Of a stretch of DNA of 24,000 bases, positions 7,382 through 16,072 are shown piece by piece (the stretch's first letter is position 1; each line of letters opens with the position of its first letter). Source of the DNA: Chloroflexota bacterium (GTDB lineage Bacteria > Chloroflexota > Anaerolineae > DUEN01); assembly GCA_024277095.1 (NCBI GenBank), contig JAJRVX010000314.1:1-24000 (forward strand), in the 5' to 3' direction. The notes below the pieces were generated by a model that was not told the origin of the DNA, did not search any database, and saw only the letters and a program-made list of their open reading frames with translations. The position numbers and the translations under genes are program-made.

Positions 7382-10300
7382 TCATCTTTCCGCCGTTTTG
7401 CCGGATGGGTCAAGCTCCTGCACCTGCCCCTGGGGATCGATGCGAAAGCGGCGCACGTACTCGGCGGGCAGCTCGAACGCGAATCGGGAGGGCAGGCGAA
7501 CGAAGCCATCGCCGCGATCGCGTACAGAGCAGAGGAACAGTCGCTCTCGCGCCCGGGTCATACCCACGTAGAACACGCGACGCTCCTCGGCCAGCGCCTC
7601 CTCCTCCTCCATGGTCGTCCACAGAGGCAGATTCTCCTCCTCCACACCGACGATGATGACCACCGGGAACTCCGTTCCCTTGGCGTTGTGAAGGGTCATC
7701 ATCGTCACCCGGTCCCCTTCCGTCCCCGTGCCCTCGACGTCCAGGCTGGTGACCAGGGCCTGATGGTCCAGGAAGGCATCCAGCGAGAGATCCCGGCTGA
7801 AGCGTGCGAAGCTCGCGAGGTAGGCCATGAAGTTCTCGCGCATGGCGCTCCAGGCCTCATCTTCGGCCATGGGCGGGGGCGGTACGGCCATCAGGCGCCG
7901 CGCGAGCTCATCCAGTCGAGCGCGCTCCCCCGCCGGCAGTTGCGCCACGATGTGTTCCTCCAGCGGGGGCGCGAGCTCTCGCGTGCGCAATGCGCCGTGC
8001 CATAACGCCCGGTTCTCGTCCTCCAGATCGACCTCGGCGTCCAACAGGCCCAACCCCACCCACGGGAGCATCTCCGGCAGGGCATTCAGCGCCAGCTGTC
8101 GCCGGTTCTCCTCAAGCAAGGCGAGCAGGAGCATCTGTGTCTGCTGGACATCCTGGGCCGCGCGATGCTCAACCGCCTCGCCCAGCCTCAGCCTGCGTAG
8201 GAGGTGTTCCAGGCTGTAGCTGTGTTCATCGGGCAGCAGGCGCTGGGCCAGCGACAGGGTGTCCAGCGCCGGGTTGCGAAAGGAGCGTCCCAATAGCCGG
8301 GCGGCCTCCCGATCGACGAACCGGTTGTCAAACGCGATGATGTTGTGCCCGGCCACCGTGGACTCTCCCACATACGCCAGGAATCTCGGCAACACGACCT
8401 CGATGGGATCCGCGTCCTTCACATCGGCCCAGGAGATGCCGTGCACCTTCGTCGCCGCCGCCGGGATGGAGCCCCGGGCGGGGCGTACCAGGGAATAGAA
8501 TGGTGGGGCCGCTTCTCGTCGGTGTTCCATGACTTGGGCCCCGATCTCCACGATCTCATCCCGACGGGCATTCGTACCCGTAGTCTCCAGATCATACACC
8601 ACGAACCGGCCGTCGGCGAGGGTCTCATAGGTCGCCAGGATATCCTGTGCCAGCCTCCAGGCGATGGCGGCGAGGGGCTGGCCCACTGCGCGCTGGGGCG
8701 GGACGTGCACGGTCAGCGCCGGCTCCCCCTCGGTGACGAGGTTCAGTTGCGGGCTGTCCAGCGACGCGTCCAATTGGGCGGCGACGGGGTAGGCCAGATA
8801 GTCCCGCAGGGCGCGGCACAGGATGGCTGCCGCGCACGCACCGTCGATCGTGGGGGGAGCGTAGACGGTGAAGGGTACACGGCGATCCAGCCAATCGCGA
8901 ATCCGGGCCACAGCGTCGGGGCGGGCGGAGAACTCGGCCCAGTCGAGCAGCCGCCGCCACTCTTCGGGGTCAAAAGGCCTGCGGCGGACCGCCAGGGTAT
9001 CCAGCAGCCGTTCCACGATCACGGTGACCGGCTGATGAGCGACCGGACGCAGTTCCTCCTCGAAGAGTTGGAGGAAGGAGCGTAAGGCCGCCCGGGTCAG
9101 CGGGCTGAGTTCAGGGAAACGATCGCTGGAACGGACCAGCTCTGCTAGGCTGATCTGATGACGGTGCGCGAGCCGCTCTAGCTGCATGATGGTCAGTTCG
9201 TCCACCAGCGTTCGCGGGAAGTTGAGGGCGGCGATCACCTCCTGGTCCGGCGCGGAGGCCAGTGAGCGCAATAGATGTAGATAGCGGATCACCTCGCGCA
9301 CCAGGGGGCGCCGGAAGAAGTGATCTTTTTGCACGCGGTGTACCGGGATGCCGTGCTGGACCAGGTAGCCCTCCAGCGGGTCGGCCAGCCGGTGGGTGCG
9401 GTACAGGATCGCGATGTCGCCATACCGATAGCCCCGCTCCTCGTGCAGCCGGCGGATCAGGGCGACCAGCCAGGCTTGTTCCTGTTGAGCTGTGGCGAAA
9501 ATGTAATGGTAGATGGGATCGCCGCGCGGGTGAACGGTGCGAAGGTAGGTCCGTCGCTTGGGGTCTCGCCAGGGAGGTGCCTGGCCGCGGGCGATCAGCC
9601 ACTGGGCGGCGTAGAGGATTGTCTGAGTGGAACGGTAGCTCTGCTCGAGCACGATCACGCGCGGGCGGTAGCGGCGCTGGAACCGATCGATCAGCGATGG
9701 CTGAGCCCCCCGCCAGCCGTAGATGGACTGGTCGCCGTCGGCGACGACGGTGATATCGCTTCCCGGGGAGGCCAGCAGGGTCAGCAGATGGTATTGGGCC
9801 AGGTTGATATCCTGGTACTCGTCCACTAGCACATGGGGCAATTGCGCCTGTACCTGGCGACGGATATCTGCCCGGCCCGCCAGCAATTGCACGGCGTAAT
9901 AGATCAGATCATCGAAGTCGAGGGCCTGGTGTTTTTGAAGCCAATCCTGATAGGCGCGCGCGACGTCTGCGTAGATGATCTCCATCTCCTCCCGGGCCGG
10001 AGAGCGTGCTGGATCCTGCATGGCGCCCTTTCTGCGGCTGATGTAATCCTGCAAGGCGTGGATCGGGTATAGCTCCGGGCTGAGGTCCAGCTCTCGCAGT
10101 GCATCCCGCAACGCCTGATGCTGCATCTCCTCGTCGGCGACGATGAAATCGGCAGGCAGATCGATGGCCTTGCCGTGCTCGCGCAGGAGACGGAGGCCGA
10201 CGGCGTGGAAGGTGTGAAGCCAGATGTCCTCGCCGGATAGGCCTGCCACCTGTTCAAGGCGTGCACGCATCTCCTCGGCAGCCCGGTTCGTGAAGGTGAC

Positions 10301-10501
10301 GGCCAGGATGCGGTCGGGCGGGACGCCTCGCTGAGTGATGAGGTAGATCGCTCGATAGGTGATGACGCGCGTCTTGCCGCTGCCGGGGCCGGCGATGACG
10401 AGCAAAGGCCCTGCCGGCGCTGTTACCGCCTCCCGTTGACGTGGGTTCAGGGCAGAAGCTAGATCTTCCCAGCTTCGCTCCAGTCCTTCGGTCATCGCCA
10501 T
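7382..10501 (-). CDS. UvrD/PcrA-family SF1 DNA helicase with a nested DnaQ-like DEDDh 3'-5' exonuclease domain
   Basis: 1039 aa. Helicase motifs: Q (LNPRQREAV), I (AGPGSGKT), Ia (AVTFTNRAA), II (VLVDEYQD), III (VVADGDQSIYGWRGA), IV (LEQSYRST, about aa 285), V (TLHNAKGTEFPVV, about aa 936) and VI (VFYVGMTRARERL). Between IV and V are ExoI FVVYDLETTG (about aa 633), ExoII GHNIIAFDNRF (about aa 719) and ExoIII HRAAQDV (about aa 779). Confidence 0.9.
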   Translation of the reverse strand: MAMTEGLERSWEDLASALNPRQREAVTAPAGPLLVIAGPGSGKTRVITYRAIYLITQRGVPPDRILAVTFTNRAAEEMRARLEQVAGLSGEDIWLHTFHAVGLRLLREHGKAIDLPADFIVADEEMQHQALRDALRELDLSPELYPIHALQDYISRRKGAMQDPARSPAREEMEIIYADVARAYQDWLQKHQALDFDDLIYYAVQLLAGRADIRRQVQAQLPHVLVDEYQDINLAQYHLLTLLASPGSDITVVADGDQSIYGWRGAQPSLIDRFQRRYRPRVIVLEQSYRSTQTILYAAQWLIARGQAPPWRDPKRRTYLRTVHPRGDPIYHYIFATAQQEQAWLVALIRRLHEERGYRYGDIAILYRTHRLADPLEGYLVQHGIPVHRVQKDHFFRRPLVREVIRYLHLLRSLASAPDQEVIAALNFPRTLVDELTIMQLERLAHRHQISLAELVRSSDRFPELSPLTRAALRSFLQLFEEELRPVAHQPVTVIVERLLDTLAVRRRPFDPEEWRRLLDWAEFSARPDAVARIRDWLDRRVPFTVYAPPTIDGACAAAILCRALRDYLAYPVAAQLDASLDSPQLNLVTEGEPALTVHVPPQRAVGQPLAAIAWRLAQDILATYETLADGRFVVYDLETTGTNARRDEIVEIGAQVMEHRREAAPPFYSLVRPARGSIPAAATKVHGISWADVKDADPIEVVLPRFLAYVGESTVAGHNIIAFDNRFVDREAARLLGRSFRNPALDTLSLAQRLLPDEHSYSLEHLLRRLRLGEAVEHRAAQDVQQTQMLLLALLEENRRQLALNALPEMLPWVGLGLLDAEVDLEDENRALWHGALRTRELAPPLEEHIVAQLPAGERARLDELARRLMAVPPPPMAEDEAWSAMRENFMAYLASFARFSRDLSLDAFLDHQALVTSLDVEGTGTEGDRVTMMTLHNAKGTEFPVVIIVGVEEENLPLWTTMEEEEALAEERRVFYVGMTRARERLFLCSVRDRGDGFVRLPSRFAFELPAEYVRRFRIDPQGQVQELDPSGKTAER

Positions 10502-10616: not shown

Positions 10617-10946
10617 TCATCGTTTGGAAGCCGCGCAGTTGACGCACAGCTTGGTGTCGGGCAGGATCTTCAACCGCTCCGGGTCGATGGGCTGACCACA
10701 CACCTCGCAGATCCCGTAACGTCCTGCCCGCGCCTTTTCCAGCGCCTCTTCCAGGGAAGCGATCTTCTCCTGAAGGCGCTCACGCTCGGCCAGGTTCATC
10801 TCCCATTCGTAGATCATCGCGTTACCCTGGCCCAAGCCGAAGTCAGGGCGCTCTGCCAGCTGTTCTTCGACGGCTGCCAGCTTCTCCCTGGCCTCGGCCA
10901 ACTCTTGCTCCAGACGGGCGACTTCAGCCTGCGTTGTTGTGGTCAC
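10617..10946 (-). CDS. TraR/DksA-family C4 zinc-finger protein with an N-terminal coiled coil
   Basis: The C-terminus CEVCGQPIDPERLKILPDTKLCVNCA is a CxxC-x17-CxxC zinc finger, and the N-terminus looks like a heptad-like coiled coil. I chose the GTG at 10946 because AAGGAGG lies 5 nt upstream. The longer tracked form starts at a TTG (11054) with no SD. Confidence 0.75.
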   Translation of the reverse strand: MTTTTQAEVARLEQELAEAREKLAAVEEQLAERPDFGLGQGNAMIYEWEMNLAERERLQEKIASLEEALEKARAGRYGICEVCGQPIDPERLKILPDTKLCVNCAASKR

Positions 10947-11104
10947 CCTACCCTCCTTTGGCTCATACCACCGGGCCGCCGCGTGGAAAGGGAACGACAA
11001 ACGCCGGGGCCCACCGCCATTCCTCAAAGTCGAAGAGGAAATTATGCGCGCCAATACGCAACCGGCCTGGTCCGCTCTTTCCGAATTGGGGTACGAACCA
11101 GATA

Positions 11105-11637: not shown

Positions 11638-11698
11638 GGCTACTCACCTCCCTCTATATTGAGATCGTTTCGCGTAAGGGGATGACGCCCTCCTATGG

Positions 11699-11736
11699 CA
11701 ACAAAAACCTCGGTGCGCTATCCGCTTTCACCGAGG
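11699..11736 (-). terminator. Intrinsic terminator (possible attenuator) 62 nt upstream of rpsU
   Basis: The minus strand reads CCTCGGTG (11736-11729), a 13-nt loop, CACCGAGG (11715-11708), then TTTTTGTTG (11707-11699). Confidence 0.6.
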
Positions 11737-11891
11737 CTTATGGGCGTCTCATGGGCTCCGGTCCAGACCCATTCGCGTGCCGCATGCTCCAGTTCCCGGA
11801 AAGCTCATACCTCCGTCTCTGTCACATGGGCGCCCCCCACGCCGCAGCCTCCTACATTGGCTTGGCCGGTGATTCCTCACCAGCCATCAAC
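11700..11891 (-). promoter_or_regulatory. Candidate structured 5' leader or cis-regulatory RNA (about 190 nt) preceding rpsU-infA
   Basis: It lies between a consensus promoter and the terminator and has no credible ORF. A 9-bp hairpin is capped by a GGAA tetraloop (11885-11864). Hand-found long-range pairings are GAGGCU (11851-11846)/AGCCUC (11738-11733), GGGCG (11835-11831)/CGCCC (11746-11742) and CAUG (11828-11825)/CAUG (11753-11750). The AGCCUC strand overlaps the terminator's 5' arm. Confidence 0.45.
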
Positions 11892-11895
11892 GTGT

Positions 11896-11924
11896 ATTAT
11901 ACCAAACGACCGTTGCGGTGTCAA
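11896..11924 (-). promoter_or_regulatory. Consensus sigma-70/SigA-type promoter (TTGACA-17 nt-TATAAT) with an A/T-rich upstream tract
   Basis: On the minus strand, TTGACA is at 11924-11919, the spacer CCGCAACGGTCGTTTGG is exactly 17 nt, and TATAAT is at 11901-11896. The upstream tract ACATAACATAAAAAGTTATCGC (about 11930-11951) looks like an UP element. Confidence 0.65.
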
Positions 11925-11981
11925 GCAGAAGCGATAACTTTTTATGTTATGTATAGCCGTGCGTTTTTGTTATCCCGTGCG

Positions 11982-13625
11982 TTATGTCAACTTGCTACCT
12001 TGATCCTCTTCCCGATCGCGCTGCCGCAACGCAGCCTTCACGCGTCGCCATATCTCCTGTACCCGCCTGGCATCTTCCGGCTGAAGCGGATGCGCGCTGT
12101 AACGGGCATCGACGAAGGCCTCCGTCAGCGATGTCAGATCCTGTTCGATCTCGGGCCAGTGAGCCGTCAGATCGACCTCATACTCATGAGGGGTCTCAGA
12201 GGGTTGTCGGGGAACCCCCCGATCGGAGGCCCGCCGCACAGTGGAGAGATAGAAATAGCGCACCCGCTCTCGCGGCCCCAGCTTGCGCAGGCTTAGGAAA
12301 CGCCAACGGGGCACCCCCCCACCACCTGCCGATGCCAGCGTGAGGGCGATCATGGAGCGAACGCGCTGGCCGAGCCGCCGCGTTCGCCCGCGCCAGGTTT
12401 GCCACCAGGCGCGCCACCAGTGCCACAGGCGGCGCAGCCATCGGCTGTCCAGGCGAATGCCCCGCCCGCCCAGATAGGCGATCACCGAATAGCCGATGAT
12501 GCCGGCCATGAGCAGCCAGACCAGGGCGCCGCCGAGCCAGTCGGGCAGATGCAGGCTGCTGGTGGCGATATCCGGGGGCTCTGGAGGGGGCCGCAGGGCC
12601 TCGGCCGCCGGGGCCTGTTCGCTTCCGAGCCCCAGCAATCCCAGAAGCCACGCGAATAGGGCGAAGAAGAGCAGGAGAGCGGCGTACGAGATCTGCATCA
12701 TGAAGTTGATCACCGCCGCCAGGATGCGTGCCATCGTGAAGGAGGACCCAAACGGCAGCAGCGCGGCCAGCAACCCGACAAGGGCCAGCATGCCGATGCC
12801 CAGCCTCCCCCAGCGCCGCACGAGCTCGGGGTCCGTGTCCGTTCCCTCGTACCGCCAGCGGGCTCGCAGCACGGCCAAGCGTCCCTGGCTGATCAGCAGG
12901 AGGCCGCCCAGGAAGTAGATGACCAGGGCGCCCTGGAGCATCGGTGTGATCCCCAGGTGTCGGATGCCGATCAGCTGTCCGACGGCTGGCTTTAGCTCTA
13001 CCCGTGACAGCCCCGCGCACAAGGCCAGGAGCACGCCTCCCCACAGCCAGTACGTGCTGAACTCCCTCAACAGCATGGAGCGCGACGGATGTCGCGCGCG
13101 TATCTCGTTCCAATCCAGGTCACGCGCGGACAGCGGCCTGACCACCAGTTCGTCCGGCTTCAGGGACATGCGCTCGAGTGCGCCCATCATCGCGGTGCTC
13201 TGTCCCCAGACGATCAGCGTCAAGATCCCGAGGAAGAACGACGTGCCATCGAAGAAGCTCAGCGGGGAGCGCAGCCATTGCGAGAGCAGCGTGGCGGTTG
13301 GCCATTGTCCCTTGACGTAGAAGGCGAGGAGCCGGGCCGCGATGAGTAGAAGGCAGATCTCGCCGAATCGAAACCGGAAGGTGCGTCGATCGCGCCGCTT
13401 CGACGCGGCCAGCCACAGCGTGGTGTATACTGCCTCCAGAGCGACCAGCGAGAGGAACGGGAGCACGGCCCCGCGTCCCCACCCGGGGATCGCCGCCTGC
13501 GCCATGGCGATGAACCCGATGGCCAGGCATGTGGCCAGCAGGGCAACCATGAGTGGCCGGAGGATCCCTCGCAGCCACAGGCTATCCTGGGACATAAGGC
13601 TTTGTTCCACAGGGGCCTCGGCCAT
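11982..13625 (-). CDS. Polytopic membrane protein with a C-terminal DUF4129-like domain
   Basis: 547 aa. The first 400 or so residues contain many hydrophobic segments. The C-terminal soluble part (PRERVRYFYLSTVRRASDRGVPRQPSETPHEYEVDL...AFVDARYSAHPLQPEDA) resembles DUF4129. The SD GGGGAGGGGG lies 2 nt upstream of the ATG (GGAGG core about 5 nt upstream), inside the end of the upstream gene. Confidence 0.7.
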   Translation of the reverse strand: MAEAPVEQSLMSQDSLWLRGILRPLMVALLATCLAIGFIAMAQAAIPGWGRGAVLPFLSLVALEAVYTTLWLAASKRRDRRTFRFRFGEICLLLIAARLLAFYVKGQWPTATLLSQWLRSPLSFFDGTSFFLGILTLIVWGQSTAMMGALERMSLKPDELVVRPLSARDLDWNEIRARHPSRSMLLREFSTYWLWGGVLLALCAGLSRVELKPAVGQLIGIRHLGITPMLQGALVIYFLGGLLLISQGRLAVLRARWRYEGTDTDPELVRRWGRLGIGMLALVGLLAALLPFGSSFTMARILAAVINFMMQISYAALLLFFALFAWLLGLLGLGSEQAPAAEALRPPPEPPDIATSSLHLPDWLGGALVWLLMAGIIGYSVIAYLGGRGIRLDSRWLRRLWHWWRAWWQTWRGRTRRLGQRVRSMIALTLASAGGGGVPRWRFLSLRKLGPRERVRYFYLSTVRRASDRGVPRQPSETPHEYEVDLTAHWPEIEQDLTSLTEAFVDARYSAHPLQPEDARRVQEIWRRVKAALRQRDREEDQGSKLT

Positions 13626-14907: not shown

Positions 14908-15888
14908 TCAGCGCAGCTCCCCGATATCCAGCTCCACCTGTTCCAGGATGTCTTCGATGATCTGTACGGCCGTCCGGCCTCGCAGCGCGCTCTCGGGGTG
15001 GACGATGCAGCGATGTGCCAGGGTCAGGGGGGCCAGCTCTTTCACGTCATCGGGCAGCACGAAATCGCGGCCGCGTATGGCCGCCAGGGCCTGGCTGCCG
15101 CGGAACAGCCCCAGGCTCCCGCGCGGGCTGGCTCCTAGAGCCAGGTCGGGGTGATGGCGCGTGGCCTGTACCAGCCGTACGATGTAGTCGCGCACGGTGT
15201 CGTCCACGTGAACGTCCCAGATCCGCTGAGCCAGGTCCGGGACGCGATCCCCGTCTACTACTGACTCCAGTCGCTCGATGGGATGCTGACGCCGCAGGTT
15301 GAGGAGCATGAGGGATTCCTCCTCTGCGTCCAGATAGCCCAGGCTGAGCTTCAGCAGGAAACGGTCGAGCTGTGCCTCGGGCAAGGGGAAGGTGCCCTCG
15401 TACTCGATGGGATTCTGGGTGGCCAGGACGAGGAAAGGGCGTTTCAGAGGATAGGTGATCCCGTCCACGGTGACCTGGCGCTCGCCCATGCACTCCAGGA
15501 GGGCGGCCTGCGTGCGGGGGGTCGCGCGATTGATCTCGTCGGCCAGGAGGACATTAGAAAATACCGGCCCGGGGCGAAACTCGAATTCGCGGGTCTTCTC
15601 ATTGAAGACGGAGACGCCGATCACGTCGCTGGGCAGCAGGTCCGGGGTGCACTGGAGCCGCCTGGCCGTCACCCCCAGGGAGGCGGCGATAGCCCGCGCC
15701 AGCATGGTTTTGCCGACGCCCGGGACGTCCTCCAGTAGCACGTGGCCCTCGCACAGCAAGGCCACGACGATGTACTCGATTGTGCGCCGCTTGCCGACGA
15801 TCACCCGTTCGACGTTCTCGATCACCCGCGCCGCGAAATCTTGGATCTCTTGCACGCTCTGCCCCCAACGCTCGTCTTGTGAGGGCAT
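14908..15888 (-). CDS. MoxR-like AAA+ ATPase
   Basis: Walker A LEDVPGVGKT, Walker B VLLADEINRA, and ATQNPIEYEGTFPLPEAQLDRF. I chose the ATG at 15888 (MPSQDERW...). The tracked ORF extends to a GTG at 15924 with no SD, so either start is possible. Confidence 0.9.
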   Translation of the reverse strand: MPSQDERWGQSVQEIQDFAARVIENVERVIVGKRRTIEYIVVALLCEGHVLLEDVPGVGKTMLARAIAASLGVTARRLQCTPDLLPSDVIGVSVFNEKTREFEFRPGPVFSNVLLADEINRATPRTQAALLECMGERQVTVDGITYPLKRPFLVLATQNPIEYEGTFPLPEAQLDRFLLKLSLGYLDAEEESLMLLNLRRQHPIERLESVVDGDRVPDLAQRIWDVHVDDTVRDYIVRLVQATRHHPDLALGASPRGSLGLFRGSQALAAIRGRDFVLPDDVKELAPLTLAHRCIVHPESALRGRTAVQIIEDILEQVELDIGELR

Positions 15889-15945
15889 TGTACCGCCGAT
15901 GGTATGGTTTGACAAGGAGGGCACGATTTTTGTTGCCGATACGTA

Positions 15946-15974
15946 TTGTAATCACGCGAGAAGTATGCTATAAT
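15946..15974 (+). promoter_or_regulatory. Promoter candidate for the methyltransferase gene (TTGTAA-17 nt-TATAAT)
   Basis: TTGTAA at 15946-15951, a 17-nt spacer and TATAAT at 15969-15974, in the lower-GC divergent intergenic region. A minus-strand TACAAT (15950-15945) could serve the MoxR operon. Confidence 0.45.
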
Positions 15975-16072
15975 AGGTATGTCATGAGAGGGTGGGCGGC
16001 GCTAATCGCCGCCTTCTTGTATGGGCTGCGAAACACACCACGCGATGTTTCACGTAAAACATTTGGGGTGGC

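Follow-up and report, generated by a model that had tools for sequence, protein, structure and literature searches.

The leader of the infC-rpmI-rplT operon of Bacillus subtilis, which responds to L20, and the S10 leader of E. coli, which responds to L4, are autogenous and act by transcription attenuation. To our knowledge, no structured attenuator has been described for rpsU, which encodes ribosomal protein bS21, or for infA, which encodes IF-1. Here we describe an RNA of about 190 nt directly upstream of rpsU-infA on the minus strand of a 24,000-nt stretch of a Chloroflexota contig (JAJRVX010000314.1, positions 1 to 24,000; this whole stretch is called the window). On the sequence evidence it is a conserved, structured cis-regulatory leader RNA, so far undescribed, and forms a new family of a well-known kind of element. 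The folding models suggest that it is probably a cis-acting transcription-attenuation leader for an operon of rpsU, infA and a DksA-like gene.

With the L20 and S10 leaders it shares a structured 5' leader in front of an operon of ribosomal protein (r-protein) and initiation factor genes, alternative terminator and antiterminator folds, single occurrence at each locus and a limited distribution across lineages. It differs from them in having no similarity of sequence or model, in that bS21 is here a presumed ligand, and in that its exact sequence matches to 16S rRNA are at chance level. It also resembles the purine and thiamine pyrophosphate (TPP) riboswitches that control transcription, in which helix P1 closes a three-way junction while its 3' strand doubles as the 5' arm of the terminator, and the two states are close in energy. 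Unlike these, it matches no known riboswitch class, has no link to metabolic genes, and its junction nucleotides are not invariant. A further parallel is infC, which has an AUU start codon and is autoregulated by IF3: rpsU in the window, and in 27/65 Chloroflexota loci, starts with AUU, AUC or AUA behind a strong Shine-Dalgarno (SD) sequence. The gene is a different one, however, nothing ties IF3 to rpsU, and this layer would be separate from the RNA switch.

Control through the rpsU leader is described in two other systems. The extended SD of rpsU in Flavobacterium johnsoniae is reported to be read by ribosomes lacking bS21, which constitutes autoregulation (PMC9976891, PMC13000453), and the 5' untranslated region (UTR) of rpsU2 in Francisella tularensis is regulatory, the stem-loops tested there being without influence (PMC13374519). 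The locus in the window is similar in that control would run through the rpsU leader, and its rpsU also has an extended SD (GGAGGUGA). The Flavobacterium and Francisella systems act on translation or mRNA stability and are not known to have a conserved three-way junction or terminator switch, whereas the layout in the window points to transcription termination. Our literature search found no report of a structured rpsU leader in Chloroflexi, and S21, rpsU, infA and Chloroflexi are not mentioned in a survey of 20 new ribosomal leader candidates.

The leader RNA and its conservation upstream of rpsU

The predicted leader, from its promoter to the start of rpsU, consists of the following parts.

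11924-11896, minus strand: sigma-70-type promoter (TTGACA at 11924-11919, 17-nt spacer, TATAAT at 11901-11896)
about 11889-11699, minus strand: non-coding leader RNA of about 190 nt, its 5' end placed from the -10 box and its 3' end at the U-tract if termination occurs
11886-11863, minus strand: 5' hairpin with a GGAA tetraloop, the variable part of the family
11847-11836, minus strand: 5' strand of P1 (P1a CUGCGGC at 11847-11841, P1b GUGGG at 11840-11836)
11829-11780, minus strand: long arm (P2 CCAUGUG/CAUGCGG, tandem G-A loop, P2b CAG/CUG, purine-rich loop, P3a CGGAGG/CUUUCCG)
11772-11751, minus strand: P4 hairpin, of different sequence in every member
11744-11731, minus strand: 3' strand of P1 (CCCAU at 11744-11740, AA bulge, GCCUCGG at 11737-11731)
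11737-11700, minus strand: intrinsic terminator (GCCUCGGUG, 13-nt loop with an inner 2-bp helix, CACCGAGGU, U-tract UUUUUGUU)
11699-11638, minus strand: spacer, poorly conserved, ending in the extended SD GAGGGAGGUGAG (11654-11643)

An earlier reading of the window from its letters alone (the sequence-only reading) had named conservation upstream of rpsU in relatives as a check on function. Such conservation was found: the RNA of the window recurs in six other diverged Anaerolineae contigs (L012, L027, L089, L136, L140 and L143), giving seven diverged sequences. L012 and L027 were the only matches of single-sequence and profile nhmmer searches among 80 Chloroflexota rpsU loci. L089, where the RNA also lies before rpsU, came from a metagenome scan for two conserved blocks of the RNA; the scan returned 50 stretches, about the number estimated beforehand for chance, and only L089 was real. 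The remaining three were reached via S21 and DksA-like homologues. L136 was matched with 71.8 bits (E = 5e-19) by a covariance model not built from it, and L143 and L140 with 78.2 bits (E = 5e-20) and 48.7 bits (E = 4e-12), respectively, by a second covariance model trained on neither. Three more contigs, L001-L003, are near-identical to the window and uninformative.

In all seven, a promoter that matches the consensus at 12/12 positions across a 17-nt spacer is followed by the RNA with its terminator, by an rpsU that starts with ATT and by infA, and the order DUF4129, RNA, rpsU, infA holds wherever the contig reaches upstream. Every instance of the RNA lies directly upstream of rpsU, the position of an autogenous r-protein leader. 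Mean identity across the family is 68% in the RNA core, 51% in the spacer from terminator to SD and 34% in the 5' part, and the flanking proteins go down to 60-67% identity (DUF4129) and 64-75% (UvrD).

The promoter of the leader had been singled out as the best consensus match of the window, and our scan bears this out: it is the sole sigma-70 site of the window to match at 12/12, and no other exceeds 10/12. It also has an extended -10 element, with TG at 11904-11903 preceding TATAAT (TGgTATAAT), and an AT-rich discriminator besides the perfect consensus. GC content over 11850-11999 is 0.44-0.46, against about 0.6-0.7 in the rest of the window. The promoter is probably constitutive. No sigma-70-type site was found in the scan between the terminator and rpsU; because the spacer lacks such a site, transcription of rpsU would need read-through, as had been supposed. 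The distance of 62 nt from the U-tract to the rpsU start, also given earlier, holds if the start is the ATT at 11637-11635. An ACT-N-T-N-CATAA box is conserved 5' of the -35 element, 14-32 nt away depending on the member (window ~11950-11940; L012 ~2172-2183; L027 ~2120-2131; L089 ~1893-1880; L143 ~1126-1138).

A transcript of about 190 nt without a credible open reading frame (ORF) had been predicted, and no ORF conserved across the leader homologues was found. A leader peptide was considered and rejected: the MWHA start recurs only as a by-product of the conserved CAUGUGGCACGC block. That the RNA is structured, as had also been supposed, was supported by folding: the 199-nt RNA has a minimum free energy (MFE) of -87.4 kcal/mol (z = -4.1), and none of 200 shuffles was as stable. 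Two further details of the earlier reading need qualifying. The 9-bp GGAA hairpin, GGCUGGUGA-GGAA-UCACCGGCC at 11885-11864, is present but specific to the window lineage, the relatives carrying different hairpins there. Both GGAGG boxes exist, but each is shifted by one base from the position first given, to 11852-11848 and 11814-11810. The first is not conserved in the relatives; the second is the 5' strand of a hairpin in them and degenerates to GGAG in L136 and GAGAGG in L140. The GGAG itself is kept in 6/7 members, in the 5' strand of the P3a hairpin.

A probable three-way junction closed by P1

The counts that follow come from seven distinct sequences (the window, L012, L027, L089, L136, L140 and L143), which form a narrow clade, and use an alignment fitted to the model. 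In the consensus structure, helix P1 closes a three-way junction that is flanked by one or more variable hairpins on its 5' side and by the terminator on its 3' side. MFE folds of the homologues, made independently, agree on this layout, including the same long arm. Across the family, P1 consists of P1a (CUGAGGC/GCCUCGG) and P1b (UGGG/CCCA) with an AA bulge between them, and P2 is CCAUGUG/CAUGUGG. The sequence-only reading had drawn the outer helix as GAGGCU/AGCCUC plus GGGCG/CGCCC; the window sequence can use this pairing, but the conserved register is CUGNGGC/GCCUCGG plus UGGG/CCCA.

Standard pairs are formed by 87% of the alignment cells, compared with 29-45% when the partners are slid by 1-3 columns. 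Changes on both sides were seen in 13 of the 35 pairs, a number reached by 2/500 shuffles, and the covariation score was 0.309 vs 0.220 +/- 0.020 in shuffles, none of 500 reaching it. Most of the covariation is supplied by P4, where 6/8 pairs changed on both sides. The P1 helix is 93.9% paired and shows compensatory C-G, U-G and U-A pairs at the P1a position adjoining P1b as well as G-C and A-U within P1b; L012, L027, L089 and L136 each have all seven P1a pairs, with the C-G, U-G and U-A variants at one position. In the P2-P3a arm, 5/7 members keep the internal loops. Because MAFFT misplaces the 5' strand of P2 in L027 and P4 in L136, every helix was further examined in five members, one sequence at a time. 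The three-way-junction fold is thus well supported by the comparison of sequences but not proven, given the small sample and an alignment biased toward the model.

A kink-turn in the P2 arm was considered and rejected, since the loop is a 2x2 GA/GA loop without the 3-nt bulge (read by eye). L143 is peculiar in that GAACUGGAGC, the 3' strand of P2b with its flanks, has a perfect 10-nt complement, GCUCCAGUUC, at the position of P4 (~1292-1302 and ~1325-1335), which suggests that L143 may use a different or additional alternative pairing.

The predicted terminator and P1 share a strand

The leader ends in a GC hairpin plus UUUUUGUUG. In the core of this hairpin, CCUCGGUG (11736-11729) pairs with CACCGAGG (11715-11708), followed by UUUUUGUU (11707-11700), so that the hairpin and U-tract earlier placed at 11736-11700 are confirmed. 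A consensus terminator scan, which accepts loops of up to 8 nt, overlooked it solely on account of its 13-nt loop. The GC-rich stem and U-tract are those of an intrinsic terminator, termination itself being predicted. A stem of 8-11 bp directly followed by a U-tract is present in 7/7 members, with 100% of cells paired, and the hairpin is the best-conserved block of the family, its loop being kept in 5/7 members.

In every member the 5' arm of the terminator begins with the 3' strand of P1a, seven bases that read GCCUCGG (11737-11731 in the window) or, in L136, ACCUCGG. Five sequences were checked for this shared strand, and in L140 and L143 it was seen on direct reading. As the shared strand contains CCUC, a GAGG:CCUC duplex is part of P1 and of the terminator alike. 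When the nascent RNA, cut before the 3' arm of the terminator, was folded, the MFE structure had all seven P1a pairs in 4/5 sequences; the window sequence instead formed the shifted pairing GAGGCU/AGCCUC. The MFE structure of the full-length RNA is the terminator state. In forced folds the P1a state came out 1.3-6 kcal/mol less stable than the terminator state in four sequences; the gap for the window sequence, in the aligned P1a register, was 11.4 kcal/mol. Mutually exclusive structures had been proposed from the window alone, where AGCCUC (11738-11733) overlaps the 5' arm of the terminator, and the proposal now has behind it conservation and compensatory changes in seven sequences. Taken together, the folding models indicate that the terminator is mutually exclusive with P1, which is how transcriptional riboswitches and attenuators are ordinarily laid out. 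With a covarying structured domain and a mutually exclusive terminator, the element is, judged by comparative sequence analysis, probably of the attenuator/riboswitch kind.

Search for known RNA families

Rfam 15 gave no match in the window at the gathering threshold. At E<=10, only P26 and COG2908 were reported on the region, both below threshold, and no known riboswitch family appeared. P26 (RF00630, a Pseudomonas small RNA (sRNA)) scored 24 bits against a threshold of 36 and was taken as a chance match because it covers the promoter and the 5' hairpin, which is not conserved in the relatives. COG2908 scored 20.2 bits against 58.7, and the match lies inside rpsU. Rfam found nothing on the RNA of L089, L136, L140 or L143. 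The sequence-only reading could assign the RNA to no known family, and this held in the window and in these relatives. No tRNA or transfer-messenger RNA (tmRNA) was found in the window, and no match to 6S, signal recognition particle (SRP) RNA, tmRNA or any sRNA family reached threshold. The suggestion of a 6S-like RNA was dropped: there was no 6S match at E<=10, and the RNA folds into a three-way junction and a 3' terminator, no rod, and its two ends do not pair with each other.

Other leader types upstream of rpsU in Chloroflexota

Besides the family described above (type A), three further types of leader precede rpsU-infA with the same layout and no detectable similarity to type A or to one another.

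type B: L011 ~320-510; L013 ~2280-2470; L036 ~2180-2360
type C: L067 ~2220-2430; L074 ~360-540
type D: L015 ~2230-2455; L146/147 (L146 ~1340-1550); L148/149 (L148 ~985-1195)

Each has an 11-12/12 promoter, an RNA of 160-230 nt and a terminator-like GC hairpin with a U-run. Nascent folds of the type B and C leaders (L011, L013, L036, L067 and L074) had the 5' arm of the hairpin base-paired to the leader's 5' end in 5/5. An all-against-all nhmmer comparison of 11 leaders gave groups A, B and C and an unmatched L015, with no links between groups; type D, which joins L015 with L146 and L148, was grouped by eye. Rfam had no match in the type B, C or D leaders. Covariance models R1 and R2, run also with filters off on 23 other rpsU loci, gave no significant match outside family A, so common ancestry of types A-D is unproven; weak matches of 6-10 bits upstream of rpsU in L011, L013 and L017 were not significant. 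The recurrence of the layout in unrelated leaders suggests that the arrangement is tied to rpsU-infA and is not an independent sRNA gene.

Caldilineaceae loci L038, L041, L042 and L062 (~2400-2460) have a much shorter leader, in which a TATAAT-like box directly precedes a 10-12 bp hairpin, GCCUGCCAGUC...GGCUGGCAGGC, and then UUGUUUUG; rpsU, with an ATT start, begins about 40 nt further on.

Proposed mechanism and rival explanations

In the mechanism that we propose, the near-perfect promoter would start an RNA that folds into the three-way junction, with the P2-P3a arm and P4 closed by P1. P1 would form first, and the 3' arm of the terminator would have to displace it. If P1 were kept while polymerase passes, the terminator would not form and rpsU, infA and the DksA-like gene would be transcribed; if P1 were lost, the terminator would form and only the RNA of about 190 nt would be made. 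The ATT start of rpsU may add a second, translational layer of control. Regulation after initiation makes sense because the promoter is a perfect consensus and no other rpsU promoter was found, and we infer that termination is conditional. As the effector we tentatively propose a product of the operon, most likely bS21, by analogy with autogenous r-protein leaders. bS21 is the first guess because the RNA lies directly before rpsU, in one copy per locus and over a narrow range, which is the pattern of r-protein leaders. Negative feedback by bS21 would have to favour the terminator state, because a stabilised P1 would mean that the operon is on.

Several points weigh against attenuation or against bS21 as its effector. 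Stabilisation of P1 would switch the operon on. Exact-match comparison with E. coli 16S rRNA gave no significant sequence mimicry: the longest matches were 9-12 nt, lengths reached by 3-60% of shuffles, and the candidate UGGAGCAUGUGG, equal to E. coli 16S 943-954, was rejected as being at chance level. The junction nucleotides already differ in L140 and L143. P2 and the terminator are uninformative on the structure because they barely vary, and the pair counts rest on seven sequences of one narrow clade in a model-fitted alignment.

A riboswitch, in which a small molecule, an ion or an alarmone (for example (p)ppGpp or a nucleotide) bound at the junction stabilises P1 and turns the operon on, would account for the classic P1-closed aptamer layout with its 3' strand common to the terminator, for the near-equal energies of the two states and for the P2-P3a internal loops kept in 5/7 members. 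We regard it as unlikely: no known family matches even at E<=10, all copies found precede rpsU and none a metabolic or transport gene, the junction and loop nucleotides GGCACGC and GACNGARAC change in L136, L140 and L143, which is unusual for a ligand pocket, and unrelated leaders occupy the same place in other Chloroflexota. The perfect promoter, the good terminator and the strong conservation of its hairpin, including the loop in 5/7 members, would also fit a stand-alone, abundant sRNA acting in trans, with rpsU-infA expressed by leaky read-through or from a type of promoter that the scan cannot recognise. This seems quite unlikely, however, as the spacer has no sigma-70-like site and is not conserved, the antiterminator pairing is conserved with compensatory changes that would be needless in a plain sRNA, unrelated leaders before rpsU-infA repeat the layout, and 6S, SRP, tmRNA and sRNA families gave no match at threshold.

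The leader could instead sense ribosomes, the GGAG(G) or the GAGG of P1a binding to the anti-SD tail, the 3' terminus of 16S rRNA, on free 30S subunits and so shifting the balance between P1 and the terminator. GGAG occurs in 6/7 members and GAGG in the 5' strand of P1a, and the P1 and terminator helices both contain GAGG:CCUC. bS21 adjoins the anti-SD and is reported to autoregulate through it in Flavobacteria (PMC9976891, PMC7797042). The first GGAGG is nevertheless not conserved, and the second is paired in P3a, reduced to GGAG in L136 and altered to GAGAGG in L140, which makes this explanation very unlikely; the earlier idea that the boxes titrate the anti-SD, of which this explanation is a switch-like version, is likewise doubtful, as one GGAG alone is conserved and that one is paired in P3a. 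Strong folding, together with the short hairpin leaders before rpsU in Caldilineaceae, would be expected if the RNA were just a long structured 5' UTR giving stability to a strongly expressed mRNA, its hairpin being an element of processing or stability and no switch. As this would leave the strand shared by P1 and the terminator and the compensatory changes unexplained, and as a U-tract directly follows the hairpin in 7/7 members, we consider it highly improbable.

Returning to attenuation of the rpsU-infA-dksA-like operon, the switch RNA and the frequent AUU start of rpsU together suggest that the dosage of bS21 and IF-1 is tightly regulated in Chloroflexota. One could extend this to a multi-layer control of bS21 and IF-1, in which a constitutive promoter is combined with fast-evolving leaders of at least four types (A-D) that switch between P1 and terminator, each with a GAGG:CCUC duplex, in response to bS21 or bS21-loaded 30S, and with a weak AUU, AUC or AUA start behind an extended SD. 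This scheme is speculative and, taken whole, improbable; if true, bS21 or anti-SD status would here for the first time be sensed at the level of transcription. A conserved switch RNA in front of rpsU-infA would be a new class of RNA that responds to a protein or to the ribosome, in a phylum that has been little studied, and its compact size, about 150 nt, suits the leader to experiments in vitro.

The rpsU start codon and neighbouring genes

The genes around the leader are the following. A DUF4129-family gene, also on the minus strand, ends at 11982, upstream of the promoter.

11637-11428, minus strand: rpsU (bS21), with an ATT start; PF01165 matches the 99%-identical P0001
11344-11105, minus strand: infA (IF-1), PF01176
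10617-11054, minus strand: DksA/TraR-type zinc-finger gene, PF01258, starting with TTG at 11054 or ATG at 10946

The rpsU frame reads TGA GTA GCC ATT and is without ATG, GTG or TTG; the ATT lies six nt 3' of GGGAGGUGAG. In the 65 Chloroflexota loci examined, the 27 ATT, ATC or ATA starts lie 5-8 nt after a strong GGGGGUGA or GGAGGUGA SD. The loci in which rpsU starts with ATT, ATC or ATA are the window, L009, L010, L012, L015, L021, L027, L031, L038-L046, L054, L056, L062, L063, L066, L068, L077, L089, L136, L140 and L143. No paper mentioning an AUU-type start for rpsU was found in the literature search. Gene callers often skip rpsU in these genomes or extend it upstream (products of 88-163 aa), as in L001/L002 2362-3001, L141-L144, L146 1291-1782, P0005, P0008, P0013 and P0028, likely because the start codon is non-canonical.

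The S21, IF-1 and DksA-like proteins assign the window to uncultured Anaerolineae. The rpsU-infA pair is conserved in most Anaerolineae and Caldilineae loci (most of L006-L085), and a DksA/TraR-type zinc-finger gene follows it in the clade of the window and in some others. Directly 3' of the DksA-like gene, most members of the clade have a UvrD-RNase T fusion gene; in the window it encodes a 1039-aa protein (7382-10501, minus strand) with UvrD-type helicase domains and an inserted RNase T/DEDD exonuclease domain. Elsewhere in the window, at 15887-16014, there are two divergent promoter-like sites of 10/12, one at 15915-15887 (minus strand) and the other at 15946-15974 (plus strand, with TG). 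Twenty nt beyond the plus-strand site, an 8-bp GC hairpin and a T-rich run occupy 15994-16014, and this region may be another short leader.

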